This document shows positions 301 through 44,631 of a stretch of 44,698 nucleotides of DNA, in pieces; the first letter of the stretch is position 1; every line of letters starts with the position of its first letter. The position numbers and the translations under genes were made by a program. The stretch is from Shigella phage 1b, in sequence record OR420686. One strand, 5' to 3'. The notes beneath the pieces are model-generated. The model was given only the letters and a program-made list of their open reading frames with translations. It did no database searches and was not told the origin of the DNA.

Positions 301-831
301 TTAGTCTTCCAGTTCGAAATAGGTTTCTACAATTTCTTTCAGATCTTTGTGGAAGTCTTCTACGTCGTCATCTTCCAGTTTAGCGATCGATTTGATCTCG
401 AACGCTTCCAGCAGGTCATCAAATTCGTCGTTCGCATCATCATCATCACCGCCTGCAATAATAGCGGCATACTGCTTGATTTCGTCGCGCATTTCTGCCA
501 GCGGATCAGCTTCTTTCTTACCTTTGCCTTTCGCTTTCTTAGTCTTCGCCGGAGCTTCTTCTTCCGCTTCGTCGTCTTCATCTTCTACTACTCCCTTCTT
601 AGCCTTACCCTTAGACTTGGTTTCTTTTGCCGCGCCTTTTTTCGTTTTAGGCGTATCTTCGACTTCGTCCTGGTCGTCGTCTTCGACTTCGGTCTCCGGC
701 TTGGCCTTGCCTTTCTTAGCAGTGCCGTTTGCTTTTGGGTCTACGGCAGCGCCAACGGTTTCATAATGTTTAGCGATGATTTCCAGTGCTACTACGCCGC
801 GAGTAATCAGGTTTACGATTTGTTCAAACAT
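301..831 (-). CDS. highly charged Lys/Asp/Glu-rich protein (176 aa)
   Basis: Track ORF 301..1059 trimmed to the internal ATG at 831 (MFEQIVNL...), which has a GGAGAT RBS; the upstream extension overlaps the predicted promoter and is not protein-like; alternating KKGKAK and DDD/EEE tracts. Confidence 0.6.
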   Translation of the reverse strand: MFEQIVNLITRGVVALEIIAKHYETVGAAVDPKANGTAKKGKAKPETEVEDDDQDEVEDTPKTKKGAAKETKSKGKAKKGVVEDEDDEAEEEAPAKTKKAKGKGKKEADPLAEMRDEIKQYAAIIAGGDDDDANDEFDDLLEAFEIKSIAKLEDDDVEDFHKDLKEIVETYFELED

Positions 832-3946: not shown

Positions 3947-3996
3947 GTGTAGTGTAGATATAGTGAATAGTTATGCAATAAAACTGCATAAACTAA

Positions 3997-4098
3997 GCGG
4001 GACAAAAAGCGGGACAAACAAGGAGCGGGACAAAGCGGGACAGCACCCCTGTCCCGCCCCGGATGACGCGGCCTGGCGGGGAGCGGGACAGCGGGACA
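3997..4098. repeat. iteron-like array of GCGGGACA (six direct copies plus one inverted copy forming a palindrome)
   Basis: Copies at about 3997, 4009, 4025, 4035, 4083, 4091; inverted tgtcccgc at 4050. Confidence 0.75.
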
Positions 4099-4103
4099 GC
4101 ACC

Positions 4104-5943: not shown

Positions 5944-6255
5944 ATGTTACACGATTTGATATATTGGTTTGGGTGGGCCAGCATGTTATGCCTGGTTACG
6001 GGAGTGCTGGGCGCAATATGGGTATTCCTGATATGGCCTGCAGTGGAAGCCGCCAGCATTACCCGCATGACGTTCGAGATATACAAGCGCCGCGGCATAA
6101 CGGAGCACCCTACCAGGCTGCGCATGTGGTGGCTGTGGTATCGGGATATGATAGGCGGTCGGACATTCGAAGCCGTCCGCTCATCCGGGTGGGAGTGGAA
6201 AGGCGTCTCCGGGTGGGAGTGGAAAGGCGTCGGCAAGTGGTCCATTTTCGATTAA
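5944..6255 (+). CDS. small membrane protein (103 aa) with internal tandem repeat SGWEWKGV x2
   Basis: Hydrophobic N-terminal helix; GGAAGGGG RBS; 24-bp perfect tandem duplication at about 6185-6232. Confidence 0.55.
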   Translation: MLHDLIYWFGWASMLCLVTGVLGAIWVFLIWPAVEAASITRMTFEIYKRRGITEHPTRLRMWWLWYRDMIGGRTFEAVRSSGWEWKGVSGWEWKGVGKWSIFD

Positions 6256-15660: not shown

Positions 15661-16362
15661 ATGAAACTTACTAAAGCAGAATATGACGCGTTGCCGGAAG
15701 GTATGAAGGCGCTTTTTGTTGCCGATGGCGACGGGTATAAATCAACGTTCATGACCGCAGAAGAAGTACAGGCGGAAATCAAGGGTCTGAAAGACAACAA
15801 CGCTAAGCTGGTGAGCGAGAAGAAAGCAGAAGCCGAACGCCGCGCCGAAGCTGAGCGCCTTGCGAAAGAGAAAGAGGAAGCCGCCGCGCGCAAAAATGGC
15901 GACCTCGAAGCGATCGACAAGTCCTGGAAAGATAAGTTTGCGAAACACGAAGCAGACACATCGGGAAAAATCGAAGCCTACCGCAAGCAGATCCACGATC
16001 TAACCATCGGCAGCGCTGCCAAAGACCTGGCATCGAAGCTATTCGGTAAGAATGCCGGGATCATGCAACGCCACGTAATGGACCGACTGACGCTGGAAGA
16101 CGGCGAAGACGGCAGCTTGAAAGTGCGGGTATTGCAGGATGGTAAACCGTCCGCGCTGACTATGGAAGAGCTTGAAAAAGAGTTCCGTAATAACGCCGAT
16201 TTTGCATCCGTCCTGGCAGGCACGCCAGCCGGTGGCGTGCCGAGCAAACCGACGCAGGTCGTCGAAGATGTGAAGTCTAAAATCACTATGGGCCACAGCT
16301 TCGGCATCACTGACTTAACGAAACAGGCCGGTGAAATCATCGCTAAAATGGGCGACGAGTAA
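15661..16362 (+). CDS. scaffolding protein, putative
   Basis: Track ORF trimmed to the ATG at 15661 (AGGGGGA RBS); charged coiled-coil sequence (KAEAERRAEAERLAKEKEEAAARK); immediately upstream of the major capsid gene. Confidence 0.5.
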   Translation: MKLTKAEYDALPEGMKALFVADGDGYKSTFMTAEEVQAEIKGLKDNNAKLVSEKKAEAERRAEAERLAKEKEEAAARKNGDLEAIDKSWKDKFAKHEADTSGKIEAYRKQIHDLTIGSAAKDLASKLFGKNAGIMQRHVMDRLTLEDGEDGSLKVRVLQDGKPSALTMEELEKEFRNNADFASVLAGTPAGGVPSKPTQVVEDVKSKITMGHSFGITDLTKQAGEIIAKMGDE

Positions 16363-20809: not shown

Positions 20810-21126
20810 TTGAGGCGGCGCGACGCTTTTATGGCCCGCCGCCACCCTCCGAAGATTTAGCCGCAAGTTTATGGGGTGCGGCCCCCGAAGATGTTTGCCC
20901 GCCGGTTGCGCTATGGCCCGACAACGCGAAGATCGTCGCAGTCTTCACAGATTGCGCCACGCAATGGCGCACCGGATTCGGTGGCGCATACGGCATCGAC
21001 TACGGTGTTCTGGAATGGCTATTTAAGATGCACGGCATCGAAAACGCGCAACGTGCGTTTAAAGATATCAAGCTAATGGAACGAATCGCGCTTGATGAAA
21101 TGGCGCAGCAGAACCACGCACAGTGA
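20447..21126 (+). CDS. tail assembly chaperone frameshift product (GT-like), via programmed -1 frameshift near 20800-20806
   Basis: Slippery A_AAA_AAC in the zero frame at the last codons of the G-like ORF; the -1 frame is open for about 107 codons to the TGA at 21124-21126 and encodes a T-domain-like sequence (LWPDNAKIVAVFTDCATQWRTGFGGAYGIDYGVLEWLF...). Confidence 0.55.
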
Positions 21127-21127
21127 A

Positions 21128-21386
21128 GCGGGACAAAACGGGACGTCCCGCTTTGTCCCGCCTCTGTAAAACTGCATATCTAATCACTTCCATTGCATAA
21201 ACCAAAAGCGGGACAGGCGGGACGTCCCGTTTTGTCCCACCCCATAAATGTGCATATCTATTCGCATTTCGTGCATAAAACAAACGGGACAAAAAGCGGG
21301 ACAGACCGGGGGCGGGACAAAGCGGGACAGCACCCCGTCCCCGCCAGTGCTGCCGCTGGTTTCAGCCGATCGGGACAGGCGGGACA
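21128..21386. repeat. iteron-like array of GCGGGACA/CGGGACA repeats (about 10 copies, including two ~34-bp palindromic units centred on GGGACGTCCC)
   Basis: Palindromes at about 21128-21162 and 21208-21240; direct copies at about 21284, 21294, 21312, 21322, 21371, 21379. Confidence 0.75.
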
Positions 21387-31668: not shown

Positions 31669-33264
31669 ATGGCAGCGGGTACACTATCCGTAACGAATAA
31701 CAGCAAGGCGGTAGTCGGTGTCGGCACAACGTTTACCGCGCTTAAAGCTGGCGACTTTCTGTCGCTGGTAGTGGGGCAAGTCCCTTATACTGTTGCTATT
31801 GCGTCCGTCGAAAGCAACACCGCGCTTACGCTGGTGCTGCCGTTCGACGGCCCTACGGCAACCGGCCTTGGTTGGGATAGCGTAGCGCGCGATACCATGT
31901 CGCTGGCGACGATGGGTGTAACCGTCCAGGCACAGAAAGCACTTCGTATGCTGATCGCGGACGAAAACAACTGGCGTGCAATCTTCGGAGACGCTGAAGA
32001 AATCTCTGTCACGCTGCCTAATGGTCAGGTAATGCAGGGCATGTCCTGGGGCTACCTGTCGCAATTGCTGAAGGACGTAGACCCCGTTGAGATGCGCAAC
32101 CTGCAACAGCAAGCGGCCGCATCGGAAGCCGCCGCGCAAGGATTTCGCAATGAGGCCGAAGGCTTCAAGACTGAGACGGCAGGGATTCGCGACGACACCG
32201 ACCGGATTAAGGCGGATACGCAGGCCATCAAAGACCAGACGAACCAGATCAAGACTGACACCGGCGCTATGCGGGACGAGGCCAACACCGCCAATACTGC
32301 CGCGCAAGCCGCCAACACTGCCGCGCAAGCCGCCAGCGCTGCCGCGCAGGGGTACCGGAACGAGGCCGAACAATTCAAGAATGAGATCGACCCGTCGAGA
32401 TTGCTGGCAAAGGCCAACAACCTGAGCGACGTTGCCGACACAACGGCAGCGCGGGGTAACTTAGGCTTGGGGTCTGCGGCGACGCTAGATGCCGGCACGT
32501 CTGGGAATAAAGTGCCAAAACTAAACAATGCAAACACATGGTCGCGGCCGCAAACTTTCATAACCCCATTAGCGGTCGAGTCTGGCGGTACTGGCGTAAA
32601 CAGGGTCGAGGATCTATGGCCCGTGGTACGACCGCTCGATGTGTTTGGTAACGTCGGACGCTTTTTTGGAATACCGGACAGTATTCCCAAAAACCACATC
32701 TGGATGTGGAACCCGGCGGACACGCCGGCGTCAGGTTGGGCGAACTATTTAGAAGGCGGATGGTTCAATGGCGCGTGGCGTATCGGTGGTATACGTGGTT
32801 CAGGTCAGGATATGGCAGCATGCCAACTGTCAGTTTACAGCGGTCAGGGTATGAATAGCGACTATGTATTCAATAACAACGGCACCGCAAGCGCCGCAAA
32901 CTGGGTCAACACATCCGACATAAGAGTAAAACGCGATATAGCTAAAATAGAAGACCCGCTAACTAAGATGCGCTCTATTCGAGGCGTATCATGGACTATG
33001 CGCTTCAAAAACAACCCCCTTAAAGGTTTCGGTTTTATCGCACAGGAAGTGCAAAAGTATTTTCCTGATGCTGTTAGAGTGGTAAACCAAAACCCTGTCA
33101 CACTTGAAGACGATACCGTTGTTGAGGATGTAATGAGCGTTGACACCGCGGGAGTGTCCGCCGCGCTACATCACGAAGCCATACTAGCACTGATGGATAA
33201 AATGGAGGATATGCAGAAAGAACTGGAGGCGTTGAAAGCCGAGCTAGCGGCGATGAGGAAATAA
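31669..33264 (+). CDS. tail fibre protein with C-terminal intramolecular chaperone (S74-like) domain
   Basis: Track ORF trimmed to MAAGTLSV (GAGGA RBS); fibre repeat GTLSVTNNSKAVVGVGTTF; Ala/Gln coiled-coil region; C-terminal SDIRVKRDIAKIEDPL...GFGFIAQEVQKYFP typical of auto-cleaving chaperone domains. Confidence 0.75.
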   Translation: MAAGTLSVTNNSKAVVGVGTTFTALKAGDFLSLVVGQVPYTVAIASVESNTALTLVLPFDGPTATGLGWDSVARDTMSLATMGVTVQAQKALRMLIADENNWRAIFGDAEEISVTLPNGQVMQGMSWGYLSQLLKDVDPVEMRNLQQQAAASEAAAQGFRNEAEGFKTETAGIRDDTDRIKADTQAIKDQTNQIKTDTGAMRDEANTANTAAQAANTAAQAASAAAQGYRNEAEQFKNEIDPSRLLAKANNLSDVADTTAARGNLGLGSAATLDAGTSGNKVPKLNNANTWSRPQTFITPLAVESGGTGVNRVEDLWPVVRPLDVFGNVGRFFGIPDSIPKNHIWMWNPADTPASGWANYLEGGWFNGAWRIGGIRGSGQDMAACQLSVYSGQGMNSDYVFNNNGTASAANWVNTSDIRVKRDIAKIEDPLTKMRSIRGVSWTMRFKNNPLKGFGFIAQEVQKYFPDAVRVVNQNPVTLEDDTVVEDVMSVDTAGVSAALHHEAILALMDKMEDMQKELEALKAELAAMRK

Positions 33265-38621: not shown

Positions 38622-38900
38622 CTATGCGACCAATTCAGCAACCAATAAATCACAGTCGGCTATGTTGTCGATGACGCGAACGTCCGCACCGCGGCGGGCC
38701 ATTCGCTCATGTTCTCGTACCTGGTGCGGCTTCGGTTTGCCACCGGGGCGCTTCACTTCGACGAACACTATTTTGCCGTTGATGATAATAATCAGGTCGG
38801 GCGCACCTGCGCGCCCCTCCCATGCCAGTTTTCGGCAGAATCCGCCAACGGCTTTAACCAGCTTCATCAGGTGACTTTGAATTTTGCCTTCTGGAGTCAT
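38622..38900 (-). CDS. VRR-NUC domain nuclease
   Basis: Track ORF trimmed to MTPEGKIQ (AAGGAAAAG RBS); PDLIII...VFVEVKRPGG...EHER matches the VRR-NUC PD-(D/E)XK pattern. Confidence 0.7.
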   Translation of the reverse strand: MTPEGKIQSHLMKLVKAVGGFCRKLAWEGRAGAPDLIIIINGKIVFVEVKRPGGKPKPHQVREHERMARRGADVRVIDNIADCDLLVAELVA

Positions 38901-39499
38901 TGTCGGCTTTTCCTTACGGCAGCTATGGCGGGGCCAATAAACTTCCGCATTTCGTCCGGGGTAAACCGGTCCCCGCGGGCTATGTTGCACTCTACGCAGC
39001 ACGGTACGCAGTTATCCTTCGTATGACCTACCGTGTTGTCGAGTCGGTCCGCGCCATTGTCACCGGAGAACCCGCAGTATGCGCACGGCTGAGAAGTAAG
39101 GCGCAGCACGTCATCTGTAGTAAGGTCGGTGTTTAGCCCTTTCCTTTCGTCTGCCTTACGGTACTGAAAGAGCTTATAGTAAGCGCGGATCTCTGGTGTC
39201 CGGTGGTTGTACTCACGGCGGGACTTATTAGAGCACGATCGGCATTCTTTACGAATATGTGACCCGTTTGCCCGGCTTCCGGGCCGGAAGTTTTCCGGCG
39301 TGAGCGGCTTGCGCTCACCGCACGTACGGCATGTTACGATCTCCCCGGTGTACTCTCGCCATACTTCTCTCGGCGGCGCTCCTCTTTCCTTATCCCGTCT
39401 CTCTTTCTTATATGCCGCCATGCATTTGGCGCACCACGACTGGCCCTTGTTGAAAGCGGACTCATCTTTATCCGTATTACAACGCCCACAATGTTTCAT
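38897..39499 (-). CDS. HNH endonuclease with two N-terminal zinc-ribbon repeats
   Basis: Track ORF trimmed to MKHCGRCNTD (GGGGGTG RBS); C-terminal CAYCGF...DRLDN...GHT.DNCVPCCVECN is a canonical HNH motif. Confidence 0.8.
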   Translation of the reverse strand: MKHCGRCNTDKDESAFNKGQSWCAKCMAAYKKERRDKERGAPPREVWREYTGEIVTCRTCGERKPLTPENFRPGSRANGSHIRKECRSCSNKSRREYNHRTPEIRAYYKLFQYRKADERKGLNTDLTTDDVLRLTSQPCAYCGFSGDNGADRLDNTVGHTKDNCVPCCVECNIARGDRFTPDEMRKFIGPAIAAVRKSRQ

Positions 39500-39566
39500 A
39501 TACACCCCCGAAAAAGAAAACGCCAGACAATAATGCCCGACGTTTCCGCTAAAAGCAACATTTCCG

Positions 39567-41858
39567 CTACTTGCGGTAGCGATACATGCAATCGCCCTCT
39601 GCGGCAAGCGGGAAGCCTTTCGCCCAAACAGGCAGGTCGCACATCAGCGCGCATAGCTCCTCGGTCGTGTAGTCGTCAGTATCCGGCACTTCGGTTATCA
39701 ATTCATCGTGCACTGACAGTACGATCTCATAGCCCGCGGCTTCAACACCCGGCATGGACCATGCGAGAATATCGCGACACAGCGCCTGCACGATGTTCTC
39801 CGTCAGTTTGCCGCCGTAGGTATACTGGAAGCCCCACTGGCGCGTAGTCTGATTCTCGCCCTGGTATTTGATGCGGGTACTTGTGCGCTTCTTGCCGGTG
39901 TCTTCGTCGATCTCAGTCGTGACAGACAGCGCGATGCCGGGATAGCTCATGATGCGCCCCGACGGCAACTCAATTTTCAACCACCACCCTGCGGCGTTCG
40001 GGTCGTCGCGCTCCTCGTCGAAGGTTGGGTCATGCTTCGACTTCGTGCGGACTATCTTGAGCGCTTTCTTACCATCCGGGCGAACGTTCGCACCCGCCCA
40101 GTATGCTTTGCCAGGATTGCGGATTGCGCAGAGCACCGCGTCTTCCAGTTCGGCCCAAAATGCAACCGTCATCGGGTGAGACTCACGCCACATGCGTTTG
40201 ATCGCGTCACACGTCAACCACACGTTTTTCGGCAGTATGTAAGTTGGGCGCTCGTCTTTCTTGCCAGGCTTCGGCGGGCGCTTGGCTTCGTTAATGCGGG
40301 CATACTCATAACCACGTTTCGCCGCGGCCCAAATATGATCGGGGAATGTGCCCTTCATGACGTCCGCCATCGCATACAGGTCGAGGCCCAGGTTTTTAGC
40401 AAACTGCAGGAACGCTGCAACACCGCCACCATAGCCCAACCCCAATTCGCACGCCTTACCAATCTGGCGCAAGTCTTTGCGGTTGGCTTTGATGTATTCC
40501 GGGTCGAGGCCAAACATCTTACCGGCAGTCTCACAATAGATATCACGACCGGCCTTAAACACCATTAGCGCGGTTTTCTCGCCAGCGATCCAGGCAAGCC
40601 CGCGACCTTCCACGTTAGAATAGTCAGCTACAACAAACTTCTTGCCCTTAGCCGGAATAATGCACCCGCGAACGGTCGAGGCCGTTAACTTCGATATGTC
40701 ATACGCCCAGTGCGCTGTCCCGCGTAACAGGGAGTTGATGCCGTTGGTGAGCATGTGCGACCGGACCCAAAAAGAAACGTCGCTCTCTCCCTCGCGGCGC
40801 TTAATCTTCCCTTCGTGGTCGTCGCTATACTCGCCGCGCGCCAGGTTTTGCGGCTGGAAGCCTTTACCCGCCCAGCGTAGCGTGCGTTTTGCCCCACCAT
40901 ACTGGAGACACCCACGACGGCGACCATCGGCGGATAAGCCATTCACGAGCGGATTATACTTAGTCGATGCCGTTGATGACGCACCGAGGCGCATCTCGAT
41001 AAGCACTTTGCCTTCGTCGGGGAAGTCCGGGTCTTCCAGCAGGTCGTTAAGTGTGGATTTCTGCGCGTTGTGGATTGTGAACGCAGGCGCCAGGTCGCGC
41101 AGCGCTGGCAGGAAGTCATTGCCGGTCAGCTTACCGCCGAAGCGCTCCCATGCTTCTTCCTTCAATTCTTCCTTATGCGCCTGCACCGCTTTGATCGCGG
41201 CGTTCGCCAGGTCAACGTCCACATAGAAGCCGCGGTCGTTGATCAACTGGTCAATAAGCAGGATTTCATCTTCCTTCGGCGTGTTGCCCCAGTCCGGTAT
41301 ACGCCAATAGACTTCCCTCATCGCGATGATATCCAGCGCGGCATAGCGCAGGAATTTAGCCCATTCGTCAGGGTGCGTCTCGCGGGTGTAGCGGCGAATT
41401 TTGTATGTCTTAGGGGTAGGCTTACAGAAGCGTTTGATCAGCGCCTTGCCCGCCTTATCCTTCGCGTGCTCTGCGTCAACGCCCAGCACCTGGCACTGCA
41501 TATCGAGGCTACCAGGAAGCGCGTGGCGAAAGGCCATAATCATGGTATCTTCAATCTGGCTTACCGGCAGGTCGATTCCCCACTTCTCACGGATAACCAG
41601 GCGGTCAAACAGGAGGCCGTTAGCCATCACGATTTTTGCTTTCTTGCGGGATACCTGGCGGAGCGCCTTGCGCAGTTCACGCGGCATTGTTGGGGATTCA
41701 GTGGCGTCCCATGTCTGCACGCGGCCCTCGTCGATGGCGTATGTGCAAATCATAATCTCGGTTGTTGGGTGCTCTGCGTAGGCGTACGCCCCTACTTTCT
41801 TCAGGTCCACCCCGCTAAATGTCTCGGTATCGAGAAATAGGCGTTCGAAGTCTTTCAT
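39567..41858 (-). CDS. family A DNA polymerase (Pol I-like) with 3'-5' exonuclease domain
   Basis: N-terminal exonuclease motif FLDTETF; polymerase motifs including RQIGKACELGLGYGGG and VLSVHDELITEV; GAGGA RBS. Confidence 0.9.
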   Translation of the reverse strand: MKDFERLFLDTETFSGVDLKKVGAYAYAEHPTTEIMICTYAIDEGRVQTWDATESPTMPRELRKALRQVSRKKAKIVMANGLLFDRLVIREKWGIDLPVSQIEDTMIMAFRHALPGSLDMQCQVLGVDAEHAKDKAGKALIKRFCKPTPKTYKIRRYTRETHPDEWAKFLRYAALDIIAMREVYWRIPDWGNTPKEDEILLIDQLINDRGFYVDVDLANAAIKAVQAHKEELKEEAWERFGGKLTGNDFLPALRDLAPAFTIHNAQKSTLNDLLEDPDFPDEGKVLIEMRLGASSTASTKYNPLVNGLSADGRRRGCLQYGGAKRTLRWAGKGFQPQNLARGEYSDDHEGKIKRREGESDVSFWVRSHMLTNGINSLLRGTAHWAYDISKLTASTVRGCIIPAKGKKFVVADYSNVEGRGLAWIAGEKTALMVFKAGRDIYCETAGKMFGLDPEYIKANRKDLRQIGKACELGLGYGGGVAAFLQFAKNLGLDLYAMADVMKGTFPDHIWAAAKRGYEYARINEAKRPPKPGKKDERPTYILPKNVWLTCDAIKRMWRESHPMTVAFWAELEDAVLCAIRNPGKAYWAGANVRPDGKKALKIVRTKSKHDPTFDEERDDPNAAGWWLKIELPSGRIMSYPGIALSVTTEIDEDTGKKRTSTRIKYQGENQTTRQWGFQYTYGGKLTENIVQALCRDILAWSMPGVEAAGYEIVLSVHDELITEVPDTDDYTTEELCALMCDLPVWAKGFPLAAEGDCMYRYRK

Positions 41859-42025
41859 TGCTTAATCCTCACTACGGCGTCAGCGCTGCCGATCATGGAG
41901 AAGATACCGTCGGAAAGGGTTATCTCCTCGCCGTTGTTGCGAATCTCGGCAACGGTGAAATACTCGCCCAGCAATTTAGACCATACTCGCATTCCGACTT
42001 TTACTTCGCTGGCTTTAATGCGCAT
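41855..42025 (-). CDS. small hypothetical protein (56 aa); below the track cutoff
   Basis: ATG with AGGA RBS; TGA stop overlaps the polymerase ATG (ATGA arrangement). Confidence 0.3.
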   Translation of the reverse strand: MRIKASEVKVGMRVWSKLLGEYFTVAEIRNNGEEITLSDGIFSMIGSADAVVRIKQ

Positions 42026-42039
42026 TTTTCATTGTCCTA

Positions 42040-42064
42040 TTAAAAAGCCCGCATTAAGCGGGCC
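42040..42064 (-). terminator. rho-independent terminator downstream of the SSB-like gene
   Basis: ggcccgcttaatgcgggc followed by TTTTT on the minus strand. Confidence 0.5.
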
Positions 42065-42083
42065 TGAATAGTGGGCTTTGCCC

Positions 42084-42869
42084 TTAACGGCGGCGACGTT
42101 TGCGTGGTGCTTCGTCTTCGTCGTCGTCCTCATCATCTTCGTCATCGCGTGGCTTACGACGTTTACGAGGTTTCTCGTCTTCGTCTTCGTCATCGTCATC
42201 GCGGCGCTTGGATTTTTTGGACTTGCGCGGTTTGTCGTCTTCGTCATCGTCATCACGACGTTTTGACTTTTTGGACTTACGCGGGCTTTCGTCTTCGTCA
42301 TCGTTGTCCAGGTCTTCGTCGGAACATGAAGACCCGCCACCGCCGAAGGCTTCGCCGTCTTCACGGAATCGCAGACCCAGCAAGCCCGCCCCAAGACCCT
42401 TGCCGTTGGTATTGTTCCACGCCCAAATATCGAGGGACACGTTGCAATAACAACCGGAATAGATCTCCTGGCCTTCGATCTCGTCGCCTTCTACGGTCAG
42501 ACCTTGTTCCGTCTGCTTCTCGCCCAGTGACGTTTGGATGTTAGGCTGTTTGAACGATTTAGCGTTGATGTACAACATGCCTTCAAATTCTTCGGTTACT
42601 TCGTCACGCTCGTCACCGTCGCGAACTGCGCATTCCTTAGAATCCTGGGCGTAGTGGCGGTCCATCCACTTATCGGCATTCTTCTCGGATTTCAGCTTGT
42701 CGGTGAGCACTGCGCGCGCTGCCGCTTCCACTTTGTCCACCTGCGGATCTTCTTTATCAAGAAGAATCACGGCGCGGTATGCCGGTTTTTGTCCATCCTG
42801 TTTAGGGGTGTCACGTTCCCAAATTTTCAGGAAACATACGCGCACATTTTTCAGGTTGACTTTCGCCAT
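42084..42869 (-). CDS. ssDNA-binding-like protein (DUF2815/T7 gp2.5-like) with a long repetitive acidic/basic C-terminal tail
   Basis: Track ORF trimmed to MAKVNLKNVRVCF (GAGGAG RBS); N-terminus typical of phage gp2.5-like SSBs that pair with a DUF2800-type exonuclease; C-terminal 90 aa are alternating DDDDEDE and KSKKSKRR tracts. Confidence 0.5.
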   Translation of the reverse strand: MAKVNLKNVRVCFLKIWERDTPKQDGQKPAYRAVILLDKEDPQVDKVEAAARAVLTDKLKSEKNADKWMDRHYAQDSKECAVRDGDERDEVTEEFEGMLYINAKSFKQPNIQTSLGEKQTEQGLTVEGDEIEGQEIYSGCYCNVSLDIWAWNNTNGKGLGAGLLGLRFREDGEAFGGGGSSCSDEDLDNDDEDESPRKSKKSKRRDDDDEDDKPRKSKKSKRRDDDDEDEDEKPRKRRKPRDDEDDEDDDEDEAPRKRRRR

Positions 42870-42963: not shown

Positions 42964-43202
42964 GCGTTTTTATTAAAAAGATTTCTGGTAACGTAGTTGG
43001 TCGCGTTCTCGATCCAGCTTAACGGCGGGCGGTTGATGTTCTTCTCCACCCAATCGACGGCAGCTTCGCTATAGCCGTCATCCAGCCAGCGGGTCGGATG
43101 TCGAATCATCCACGCCACCATTAACACGCCTTGCACGCAATGCAGGATAAATCCAAGCGCGCCGATAACAAACATCAATAAGATTGCGAATACTTTATTC
43201 AT
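42960..43202 (-). CDS. small membrane protein (80 aa)
   Basis: N-terminal hydrophobic helix (VFAILLMFVIGALGFIL); GAGGA RBS. Confidence 0.5.
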   Translation of the reverse strand: MNKVFAILLMFVIGALGFILHCVQGVLMVAWMIRHPTRWLDDGYSEAAVDWVEKNINRPPLSWIENATNYVTRNLFNKNA

Positions 43203-44631
43203 TACTTAAGTCCTCGTCGGTAGCTTCAGACCACGCGGGGCGCGGGTCGTCGATAGGAGCTAATACCGGTTTAGCCGGTGCGCGCGTGATTTTATCACAT
43301 AATTTTGCCCACACTTTCGGCTTCTCGTCCTTAAGTACCTTCTCAGCGTCGGTAGGACTGAGCAATGTTTCTTTGTACATCACATCGCGCTTGATCCTGG
43401 CCTTCGTGAAGATTTCGATCACTTCGCTTTCGTCCGCCCACTTGCGAATCCCTTCCTTTCCGGCAACCATCTTGAGGCCCAGCGATTCGCCATCCCCCGC
43501 CATTACCGCTTTGAATACCGCGGACTCGATAGCTTTGATGTGCTGGCGCATTGCGTCCAGGCCCTCATAAGCCTTGCGCAGTTCCGCAGCGCTCATAGCG
43601 CCGGGGGCCGCTTCTTTCTTACCACGCTTCGCACGTCGTGCCGCCTTCCGGGCTTCGCGGGCCATATTGCGGTCGTGATTGGCGCATTCTTCCTCTGTCG
43701 CAATACTCACGTCGTCGCCCAGGTCTTCGTCTGTTGCCGTTGGTGGGGTCATCGTGTCGATTGCGGCCTTCGCCCGGGCGCTGCACTGGTCTGCAAATCG
43801 GCACCACTGGCACGCATCGACGCTGGGCCGGAAGTCCGCGCGGGTTAGCCCCTTCTTGCCGCGGGCGTATGCATCGAGCGCGGCGATAGCACGCTTGGAC
43901 GCAAACTTCGCGAATATCTCCAGCGCTTCCACGGTAATATCCCACTCCGACGCCCCGCCGCAATACGGCTGGAAGATGACCAGGCGCACGGTTGTTATGT
44001 CGTACATAGTTTGCAGCTTGCGCAGCAGGCCGAGCGCGTACAACATAAGCTGTTTGTTTTCTTTCGCCTCGACCTTATGCCGCCCAGTCTTCAGGTCGCC
44101 AACAATCAGCATGTACGTACCGTCGGTCTTCTTCATGACCATGACCATATCGGCGGTGCCGAATGTCTTAACCCGGTTGCCGTCGATCTCGAAGCCAGAG
44201 TGTAGGACGCGGGTTAGTTCGGCGCGCATCTCAAGCTGAACAAACTCCGCCACTTCGAGGAGCGGTCGCCAGTGGTCGATGTACGCGTCGCACTGTTTCA
44301 CCATATCGTCATTGACCAGTACGCCGCCTTTCGGCGCTTTCGGGTGTGCCTTTACTGGCCCCTTACCTTCGTTCTCGACGTAACATCCTTTATATGTCTT
44401 TGCGGTTATCGTCTTTTCACCGGCGATAATGCGGTTTAGCACCACTTCAGATACGGTGTGCATACTCGTACCGTTAATCGCGGCCTGCCCGGATTCGTTC
44501 GGGATATCTTTTTCTACCACCAGGGCGGCAGGGCAACCCATCCATTTTTTAGCACCGGATGGACCAAGTAATGAGTGTTCCGTATTGCTACCGGATTGCG
44601 TTTTACGTTTTGGTTTAATCGCCATGGACAT
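43195..44631 (-). CDS. PD-(D/E)XK exonuclease (DUF2800/RecB-Cas4-like) with C-terminal Cys cluster
   Basis: N-terminal LLGPSGAKKWMGCPA signature, GTADMVMV and IVGDLKTGRHK...QLMLYALG nuclease core, CQWCRFADQC cysteine motif. Confidence 0.7.
   Translation of the reverse strand: MSMAIKPKRKTQSGSNTEHSLLGPSGAKKWMGCPAALVVEKDIPNESGQAAINGTSMHTVSEVVLNRIIAGEKTITAKTYKGCYVENEGKGPVKAHPKAPKGGVLVNDDMVKQCDAYIDHWRPLLEVAEFVQLEMRAELTRVLHSGFEIDGNRVKTFGTADMVMVMKKTDGTYMLIVGDLKTGRHKVEAKENKQLMLYALGLLRKLQTMYDITTVRLVIFQPYCGGASEWDITVEALEIFAKFASKRAIAALDAYARGKKGLTRADFRPSVDACQWCRFADQCSARAKAAIDTMTPPTATDEDLGDDVSIATEEECANHDRNMAREARKAARRAKRGKKEAAPGAMSAAELRKAYEGLDAMRQHIKAIESAVFKAVMAGDGESLGLKMVAGKEGIRKWADESEVIEIFTKARIKRDVMYKETLLSPTDAEKVLKDEKPKVWAKLCDKITRAPAKPVLAPIDDPRPAWSEATDEDLSNE

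Follow-up and report, generated by a model that had tools for sequence, protein, structure and literature searches.

A recurrent charge-block tail on the Enc34/gp2.5-type single-stranded DNA-binding protein of Shigella phage 1b

In the crystal of ORF6, the protein of phage Enc34 that binds single-stranded DNA (ssDNA) and is hence called an SSB, the C-terminal tail sits in the beta-sheet groove of a neighboring molecule, and removal of 21 residues unmasks binding to double-stranded DNA (dsDNA) (PMC5686142). The tail of gp2.5 regulates binding dynamics (PMC10359462), and the disordered linker of E. coli SSB tunes condensation (PMC12143593). A gene module consisting of duf2800, gp2.5 and polA was described previously (PMC8093625). 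Here, we analyzed the SSB gene of Shigella phage 1b (sequence record OR420686), which lies at positions 42084-42869 of the window, that is, of the whole stretch of 44,698 bp that was examined. The window is a complete or near-complete genome of a Dhillonvirus (an HK578-like E. coli/Shigella siphophage), and the DNA around the SSB gene shares 93-95% identity with about 150 Dhillonvirus records. An identical protein is found in GenBank (WOZ53448.2, 'putative single stranded DNA binding protein', Shigella phage 1b). The SSB is thus already annotated and is a member of a known family; what the papers searched do not describe is its recurrent, selected charge-block tail, which follows design rules at the sequence level. 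The parts of the gene are as follows.

42084-42869, minus strand: SSB gene, 261 amino acids plus stop codon (open reading frame (ORF), ribosome-binding site, Pfam PF10991, PHROG 112)
42345-42869, minus strand: OB-fold core, residues 1-175, of the Enc34/DUF2815 and T7 gp2.5 type (AlphaFold2, Foldseek, contact residues)
42309-42344, minus strand: Gly/Ser linker (G176-C182), then the motif S183-D-E-D-L187 (translation)
42087-42308, minus strand: charge-block disordered tail, residues 188-261 (74 amino acids), ending APRKRRRR (composition, kappa, AlphaFold2)
42181-42304: 54-nucleotide (nt) DNA tandem repeat, 2.3 copies with 87% matches (Tandem Repeats Finder), encoding units 1 and 2 of the tail

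The gene starts with an ATG codon located 7 nt 3' of GAGGAG. Residues 3-193 of its product matched Pfam PF10991 (Enc34_ssDNA-bd, formerly DUF2815) with an E value of 6.5e-32 and a score of 111 bits, where the curated threshold is 26, and the protein matched PHROG 112, 'Gp2.5-like ssDNA binding and annealing protein', with an E value of 2e-51. Solved structures matched by sequence were those of the DUF2815 proteins 4klk and 4jg2 and of Enc34 ORF6, 5odj (E values of 1e-11 to 1e-12). An AlphaFold2 model built on an alignment of 48 homologs had a predicted local distance difference test score (pLDDT) above 90 across residues 1-172, and Foldseek matched this model to 4klk (E = 2.5e-12), to the Enc34 SSB 5odl (E = 3.3e-12) and to T7 gp2.5, 1je5 (E = 2e-6). 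Using a HMMER alignment to 5odj and the published residue list of Enc34 ORF6, we compared the residues that contact ssDNA. Four of the seven contacts were kept (Trp150 as W149, Asn154 as N153, Arg112 as K104 and Tyr30 as F13), including the three positions called conserved across T7-type SSBs, namely the Trp150 stack, Asn154 and Arg112. Those not kept were Tyr156 (N155, with W151 adjacent), Lys46 (A30, with K28 nearby) and Tyr37 (T21). The Pfam search gave no match to the bacterial SSB family PF00436 at E values up to 0.01, the Foldseek E value against E. coli SSB (1qvc) was above 1, and the C-terminus is RRRR and not DDDIPF. Taken together, these data identify the gene product as a Dhillonvirus replicative/recombinational SSB of the Enc34/DUF2815 OB-fold type, acting in a conserved duf2800 exonuclease-SSB-PolA module. 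In line with this identity, orthologous Dhillonvirus SSBs trigger defense systems that sense SSBs, as described below. An earlier sequence-only reading of this DNA had assigned the N-terminal 170 residues or so to a gp2.5/DUF2815-type SSB next to a DUF2800-like exonuclease, and both assignments were borne out, the first by the profiles, the solved structures and the predicted fold, the second by a match to Pfam PF10926 (E = 1e-65) at 43195-44631 on the minus strand.

From residue 179 onward, the C-terminal tail comprises 83 residues, 37 of which are Asp or Glu and 28 Lys or Arg, arranged as four acidic blocks that alternate with four basic blocks (RKSKKSKRR, KPRKSKKSKRR, KPRKRRKPR and RKRRRR). 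It is 79% charged, with a net charge of -9 (-0.11 per residue), and its kappa value of about 0.58 was reached by none of 5000 composition-preserving shuffles. In the AlphaFold2 model, the tail had a pLDDT of about 50 and no secondary structure beyond residue 186. It therefore has the segregated opposite charges within a disordered segment that characterize charge-patterned disordered regions, and it lacks the canonical form of the family, a short, purely acidic tail with a hydrophobic or aromatic end. In short, the SSB combines a genuine PF10991 core with a variant tail, which is still net acidic and keeps the proximal SDEDL motif of the family. A single alpha-helix (ER/K) reading of the tail was rejected, since no helix is predicted beyond residue 186 and the tail is Asp-rich with a Pro in each unit. 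Programmed -1 frameshifting at CAAAAAG was rejected as well, because the -1 frame stops almost immediately, which leaves +1 as the sole open alternative; long ORFs that cross the tail in other frames or on the opposite strand were put down to by-products of composition.

The tail had been described from the sequence alone as near-perfect tandem repeats encoded by DNA repeats around 42110-42300. The DNA repeats were found by Tandem Repeats Finder at 42181-42304, together with short GA-rich arrays that start at 42110, whereas 'near-perfect' holds for units 1 and 2, with 16 identical residues, but not for units 3 and 4, which have diverged. Units 1 and 2 encode the same 16-residue peptide (PRKSKKSKRRDDDDED), and their DNA differs at 6 sites, all synonymous (0 non-synonymous). 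The purely synonymous nature of these differences excludes collapse or duplication during assembly and shows that conservation acts on the peptide, not on the DNA. Among eight Dhillonvirus genes, the tail had a ratio of non-synonymous to synonymous polymorphism (pN/pS) of 0.12, compared with 0.06 for the core. The tail was found in a 90% cluster of 537 members from independent sources and in 154 phage records, and the last unit (DDEDEAPRKRRRR) was invariant in all in-frame Dhillonvirus sequences examined (about 30).

We considered whether the tail is an assembly or annotation artefact, or whether the DNA repeats form a cis element (iterons or an origin) with only incidental peptide repeats. 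Assembly errors arise easily in low-complexity repeats, the +1 frame is open throughout the tail, and three database entries (P0005, P0008 and P0137) have frame-shifted tails. In one of them, phage Ioannina (P0137, L016), the frameshift is a 1-nt deletion in the GGC run GGCGGCGGCGG that encodes the Gly linker, relative to phage LM40P1 (L017), which is near-identical over the ~1.25-kb region compared; judged from this comparison, an error in sequencing is its most likely cause. The tail is borne out by hundreds of independent assemblies, its unit copies carry 6 synonymous differences over 16 codons, and distant homologs keep the peptide pattern with unrelated DNA. An artefact or a cis element is thus extremely improbable, as these data already speak against both: the tail is genuine rather than the local assembly artefact that the sequence-only reading had allowed for. 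As a side observation, the frame-shifted Dhillonvirus SSB records read the open +1 frame through the terminator that follows the gene and are mis-annotated as proteins of 269-284 amino acids.

The number of units varies from 1 to 4 among Dhillonviruses. The single-unit SSB of phage welsh has 202 amino acids and a tail ...DNDDEDEAPRKRRRR; SSBs with two units have 217-224, those with three 247 and those with four 254-266 amino acids. When an even sample of 60 of the 154 phage records was compared with the window, about 49 genes were within 15 nt of the length found here, 7 were shorter by 51-75 nt, one by about 111 nt and one (welsh) by 177 nt. Four units is the commonest state, even though direct repeats should favor loss. 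The 54-nt DNA repeat is the likely substrate for gains and losses of units among relatives. Comparison of these sequences indicates that the tail is an add-on that selection keeps and that gains or loses entire units, probably by way of its DNA repeats.

We then determined how common such tails are in the family. A first homolog search collected candidates from short words in common with the query, so that tails with repeats are over-represented in it. To correct this bias, a HMMER search was performed with the N-terminal 180 residues only against 1.84 billion cluster representatives; it gave 2106 hits, and tails were classified for the best 150, of which 145 were usable. Purely acidic tails, with a median of 27 amino acids, were found in 132 of the 145 representatives (about 91%), and mixed acidic/basic tails in 13 (9%). 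The acidic tails mostly end in hydrophobic residues (...DDDIPF, ...DDLV, ...DDFLS). The earlier statement that phage SSBs usually carry a short acidic tail therefore holds for the PF10991 family, among these best hits as well as in Enc34 ORF6. That the tail of phage 1b is unusual stands only in part: it is unusual for the family, but it is normal for its own clade and recurs in other clades. On a neighbor-joining tree of 264 N-terminal domains, the proteins with mixed tails fell into an enteric-phage clade of 81 sequences, a clade of 33 from alpha-proteobacterial-type contigs, and about twelve small groups or singletons, which by parsimony implies 12 changes. The alpha-type long-tail proteins, 26-36% identical to the query, are no closer to it than many short-tailed proteins, at 30-41%. 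Judging from this tree, repeated gain or loss of mixed tails seems more likely than a single origin.

The mixed tails follow simple rules. Among 132 of them, the count of acidic residues was 1.23 times that of basic residues plus 4.8 (r = 0.95). Their median net charge was -9 (interquartile range (IQR) -12 to -7), compared with -8 (IQR -9 to -6) for the same number of short acidic tails, though they are 2.6 times as long. Because the net charge is held at the family norm, the repeats look like near-neutral modules on a net-acidic tail. Proline begins 440 of 503 basic blocks (87%), and in 124 tails the median block span was 8 residues, for acidic and basic blocks alike, with a unit period of 17 (IQR 15-19). 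Across the family the unit number runs from 1 to 9. The minimal form, one acidic block followed by ...PRRERRR, is seen in Jerseyvirus SETP3 gp39 and in Kagunavirus Bas72; the SSB of Serratia phage Otaku has three units, and Bbp40 of Bordetella phage BPP-1 has an acidic-only tail. About half of the mixed tails, those of the enteric clade, end in a basic run, and in the remaining ones the repeats are followed by an acidic-hydrophobic tip, such as the ...RRRRSRDEDVA of contig L014.

These data bear on a reading in which the repeats are a largely neutral spacer, generated by slippage or unequal recombination in GA-rich DNA, with selection acting on disorder, solubility and net charge only. Viable isolates with one to four units, the range of one to nine across the family, the constancy of net charge, and the lack of hydrophobic residues and of predicted structure in the repeats are all in its favor, as is the linker of a second protein of this phage, described below, which varies from 0 to 3 units. 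The identical 16-residue peptide retained in two copies despite 6 synonymous changes, the low pN/pS of the tail and the predominance of four units speak against it; moreover, the clades show uniform block lengths, periods and Pro positions although their cores have only 26-36% identity to that of phage 1b. We consider a largely neutral spacer rather unlikely.

The basic blocks themselves raise another possibility, that they are extra nucleic-acid-binding modules making a second DNA or RNA contact, which would bridge and anneal strands and give the SSB the role of a single-strand annealing protein working with the exonuclease. PHROG 112 and several GenBank records use the name 'ssDNA binding and annealing protein', the module has no separate recombinase, Lys/Arg runs initiated by xPRK or SPRK resemble minor-groove-binding and Arg-rich motifs, and an Arg run is exposed at the very C-terminus in the enteric clade. 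However, acidic blocks of equal length flank the basic ones in a tail of net charge -9, which should disfavor DNA binding at physiological salt; the tail tip of the alpha-type clade is acidic-hydrophobic rather than basic; and short-tailed members without basic blocks, whose annealing is assumed, have the same exonuclease-SSB-PolA module. Annealing by the basic blocks is thus possible but doubtful.

The conserved motif S183-D-E-D-L187 (42309-42323) lies directly after the Gly linker and is the only helical turn in the tail of the AlphaFold2 model; D186 is nearly invariant in the homolog alignment. The same motif is found in the adjacent exonuclease.

43195-44631, minus strand: DUF2800 / PD-(D/E)XK exonuclease, 478 amino acids (Pfam PF10926, PF12705; PHROG 69)
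43207-43221, minus strand: C-terminal exonuclease motif T471-D-E-D-L475, in ...EATDEDLSNE at the stop codon
43720-43734, minus strand: internal exonuclease motif T300-D-E-D-L304, in an insertion and followed by the basic stretch REARKAARRAKRGKK

When the window was translated in six frames (89,392 residues), [ST]DEDL turned up only three times, once in the SSB and twice in the exonuclease; the motif-bearing peptides are GSSCSDEDLDNDD in the SSB and SEATDEDLSNE in the exonuclease. The internal copy lies in an insertion relative to the DUF2800 profile (residues ~298-350; 43580-43740, minus strand), which reads TATDEDLGDDVSIATEEE... before its basic part and is the third acidic-then-basic segment of the operon. 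We also examined loci in phage records and viral contigs at which both genes are present, locating the proteins with hidden Markov models. In 84 non-redundant loci, the proximal motif of the SSB and the C-terminal motif of the exonuclease were both of the form [DE][DE]F at 53 and both D[DE]DL at 17, all 17 in the enteric clade. The types were discordant at 2 loci, and at least one motif was undetected at 12, so that 70 of the 72 loci in which both were found were concordant. A second tip is also common to both proteins in some loci (...NDDIA and ...ADDIA in L037, ...EDLV and ...ADLV in BPP-1, ...EEFA and ...GDFA in L042). Because an acidic-hydrophobic motif is found on both tails family-wide, we argue for a common docking site. 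In T7, the acidic, Phe-ending tails of gp2.5 and of the gp4 helicase-primase bind the same sites on the DNA polymerase. By analogy with the Enc34 crystal, the OB groove that holds the neighbor's tail is another candidate docking site. SDEDL is likely to be the business end of the tail and the charge blocks a distal add-on. Full-text literature searches found neither the charge-block tail nor the motif shared by SSB and exonuclease described.

Charge blocks of this kind were also sought in the rest of the window, where the sequence-only reading had pointed to a second protein with similar alternation.

301-831, minus strand: 176-amino-acid mixed-charge protein (PHROG 3127, predicted only), with its linker at nt 508-741

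A six-frame scan bore this out: blockwise acidic/basic segments were found in the SSB and in the 176-amino-acid protein only, and the other charge-rich stretch, at 15760-15936, has interleaved, coiled-coil-like charges. The protein had no Pfam match. Its model has an N-terminal helix, a disordered stretch at residues 27-105 (pLDDT below 50) and a C-terminal acidic domain of three helices (pLDDT about 90), for which no significant structural match was found in the PDB (best E value 0.58). The linker follows the grammar of the SSB tail, an acidic block, xP(A/R)K and a basic block, with 0 to 3 units of 'EVVEDDDDEAEDEKPAKSKKAPAKGKGKK' in homologs of 115-179 amino acids. In unsplit relatives, its gene is part of the leftward operon of the SSB and is located upstream of the exonuclease gene, and homologs open the module in Jerseyvirus SETP3 (gp42), in Otaku (gp48) and in Kagunavirus Bas72 (Bas72_0049). 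A link between tail type and this protein was considered but was not supported: the protein is present in the enteric clade and absent from the alpha-type contig L014. Because L014 has a long tail without it, the protein follows clade and not tail type.

Taken together, these comparisons show what appears to be a two-layered C-terminal region, with a family-wide SDEDL motif and a clade-specific, predicted disordered polyampholyte of 74 residues made of ~8-residue blocks, the basic ones initiated by Pro. We propose the following mechanism. The net-acidic tail would still shield the DNA-binding cleft and keep the protein specific for ssDNA, as in Enc34 ORF6 and gp2.5. SDEDL would dock at a site common to the tail of the exonuclease, which may be on the polymerase, on the helicase or in the OB groove of a neighboring SSB. 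The alternating blocks would make multivalent, salt-sensitive electrostatic contacts, with a basic block pairing with an acidic block of another SSB, with the linker of the 176-amino-acid protein or with DNA phosphates. Such contacts may raise the cooperativity of the SSB and/or its local concentration on ssDNA, and the number of units would tune the effect. As a whole, this mechanism of tail shielding, SDEDL docking and multivalent block pairing is plausible, though we put it forward tentatively. A stronger version, which we regard as unlikely, is that the SSB tail, aided by the 176-amino-acid protein's linker and the exonuclease insertion, drives the formation on ssDNA of a phage compartment for replication/recombination by complex coacervation; [ST]DEDL would then recruit SSB and exonuclease to one client site, the number of units would be an evolvable dial for the strength of the condensate, and selection for this would have produced the tails of other clades independently.

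Host defense systems offer a further explanation for the polymorphism in tail length. SECphi4, SECphi6 and SECphi18 are Dhillonviruses. Their orthologous SSB carries mutations in phages escaping Retron-Eco8 and is sufficient to trigger the retron (10.1101/2022.08.27.505566), and a Dhillonvirus SSB activates type III Sir2-HerA (PMC13434337). Retron-Eco8, Sir2-HerA, Hachiman and other systems sense phage SSBs, and the tail might mask the SSB from them or act as a decoy, in which case changes in unit number might be escapes; Dhillonvirus SSBs are demonstrated triggers, and tail length is polymorphic within one genus. However, in the accessible part of the SECphi report, the SSB escape mutations mapped for SECphi4 and SECphi18 are T56P, F106V, N152H and promoter changes, that is, in the OB core or the promoter, and no tail mutation is listed there (10.1101/2022.08.27.505566). 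In addition, the C-tail of T7 gp2.5 is dispensable for Eco8 activation (PMC13402713), and selection on individual residues of the tail is purifying rather than diversifying. We conclude that defense as the driver of tail length is quite improbable.

Several points weigh against the mechanism of tail shielding, docking and block pairing that we favor. The two defense results just cited, the lack of listed tail mutations and the dispensable tail of gp2.5, are among them. The L/F concordance between SSB and exonuclease is weak as covariation, because it goes back essentially to a single clade split and so to few independent events. The tree is a crude neighbor-joining tree, and half of its sequences came from the short-word search that favors repeat-bearing tails; the pN/pS estimate is based on 8 sequences only, with an uncertain low-complexity alignment. 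Finally, phages with two units or with one (welsh) are viable isolates, and thus extra units are not essential on laboratory hosts.

The genes and elements that surround the SSB gene include the following.

39567-41858, minus strand: family A DNA polymerase (PolA), 763 amino acids (Pfam PF00476, PHROG 17)
42038-42066, minus strand: intrinsic-terminator-like hairpin, GGCCCGC-TTAAT-GCGGGC then TTTTT, directly 3' of the SSB stop codon

The gene order duf2800 - gp2.5 - polA in the window is likewise found in Oekolampad, SETP3, Bas72, BPP-1, Otaku and L014. The hairpin has a predicted RNA folding energy of -24.3 kcal/mol (z = -3.9) and precedes a 56-amino-acid ORF and PolA; it was absent from the output of a simple consensus terminator scan. 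The hairpin may set a high ratio of SSB to polymerase expression. The 56-amino-acid ORF (41855-42025, minus strand; PHROG 10102, predicted only) lies between the SSB and PolA, and its stop codon overlaps the PolA start. According to the SECphi report, phages SECphi4, SECphi6 and SECphi18 that escape defense carry frameshift or point mutations in this ORF or upstream of it, and its supplementary table places these mutations beside the DNA-polymerase (Borvo) escapers (10.1101/2022.08.27.505566).

Downstream of PolA, at 38622-39607 on the minus strand, we observed an ORF of 236 amino acids that resembles endonuclease VII/HNH nucleases (PHROG 1035) and a VRR-NUC ORF. Oekolampad has small hypothetical genes directly downstream of PolA at this place, and the nuclease ORFs may be a mobile homing-endonuclease insertion. 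Elsewhere in the window, the motif AAGCGGGACAAA / AGCGGGAC is clustered at two distant sites, 3995-4100 and 21126-21326; one cluster has a 79-nt unit in 2.2 copies with an inverted GCGGGAC...GTCCCGC, and the clusters could be regulatory or terminator-like elements. Tandem Repeats Finder also reported perfect tandem repeats at 6184-6231 (24 nt, two copies) and 32288-32348 (21 nt, 2.9 copies), with unit lengths divisible by three, which may be in-frame peptide repeats of other genes.

In about 9% of the family clusters sampled (the best 150 of 2106 hits), the short acidic tail is replaced with a polymer of regularly spaced blocks, and such tails are carried by common phages of the genera Dhillonvirus, Jerseyvirus and Kagunavirus. 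Isolates with one, two, three and four units are a natural allelic series for charge patterning in a disordered tail, and little engineering would therefore be needed to study cooperativity, discrimination between single and double strands, condensation and defense sensing. The duf2800-gp2.5-polA module is found very widely and has received little study, and the motif shared by SSB and exonuclease offers a hypothesis for what holds it together. Studies of Dhillonvirus SSBs as triggers, or models limited to residues 1-186, ignore a third of the protein; the published SECphi4 model covers these residues only and leaves out the flexible C-terminal ones (10.1101/2022.08.27.505566).

How, then, does this SSB compare with known systems? 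The closest is Enc34 ORF6 (PDB 5ODJ/5ODK/5ODL), the PF10991 type protein from an Enterobacter/Hafnia phage, which has the same family, fold and gene module. Both proteins have the Trp, Asn and basic ssDNA contacts and a C-terminal segment that lacks structure, but ORF6 has 199 amino acids and a purely acidic tail in which 16 of the last 29 residues are Asp or Glu (PMC5686142), whereas in the SSB of phage 1b alternating acidic and basic blocks contribute a further 74 residues, up to a final RRRR. The direct orthologs in SECphi4 and SECphi18 have the same tail grammar; that of SECphi4 has three units, compared with four here, and ends in KPRKRRRR. T7 gp2.5 (1JE5) has an OB fold of the same type and an acidic tail with a regulatory role in DNA binding and in contacts with partners. 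It differs in its 11-14% identity, its short tail, its C-terminal aromatic residue and its lack of basic blocks, and the partner that shares the tail motif is the helicase (gp4) in T7 and the exonuclease here.

The remaining comparisons are functional. E. coli SSB, from a different OB family, likewise has a disordered linker between its OB domain and a docking motif, but that linker is rich in Gly, Gln and Pro and nearly uncharged, whereas 79% of the residues in the tail described here are charged. The composition of the E. coli linker tunes cooperativity as well as condensation (PMC12143593). The hydrophobic motif comes after the linker in E. coli SSB and before the repeats in the clade of phage 1b; the distant long-tail homologs P0080 and P0104 end in ...DDEIPF, like the E. 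coli tip. In T4 gp32, a basic peptide (KRKST) of the N-terminal B-domain mediates cooperative SSB-SSB contacts, and the acidic A-domain serves partner binding and autoinhibition. This is an analogy of function without homology, with single charged segments at opposite ends of gp32 and interleaved repeats here. Charge-block disordered regions are also known to drive condensates, as in the C-terminal domain of Caulobacter RNase E (BR-bodies) and in proteins with the alternation of the Nopp140/nucleolin type. The SSB tail has no homology to these regions, and its shorter blocks have a high content of Asp, Pro, Arg and Lys.

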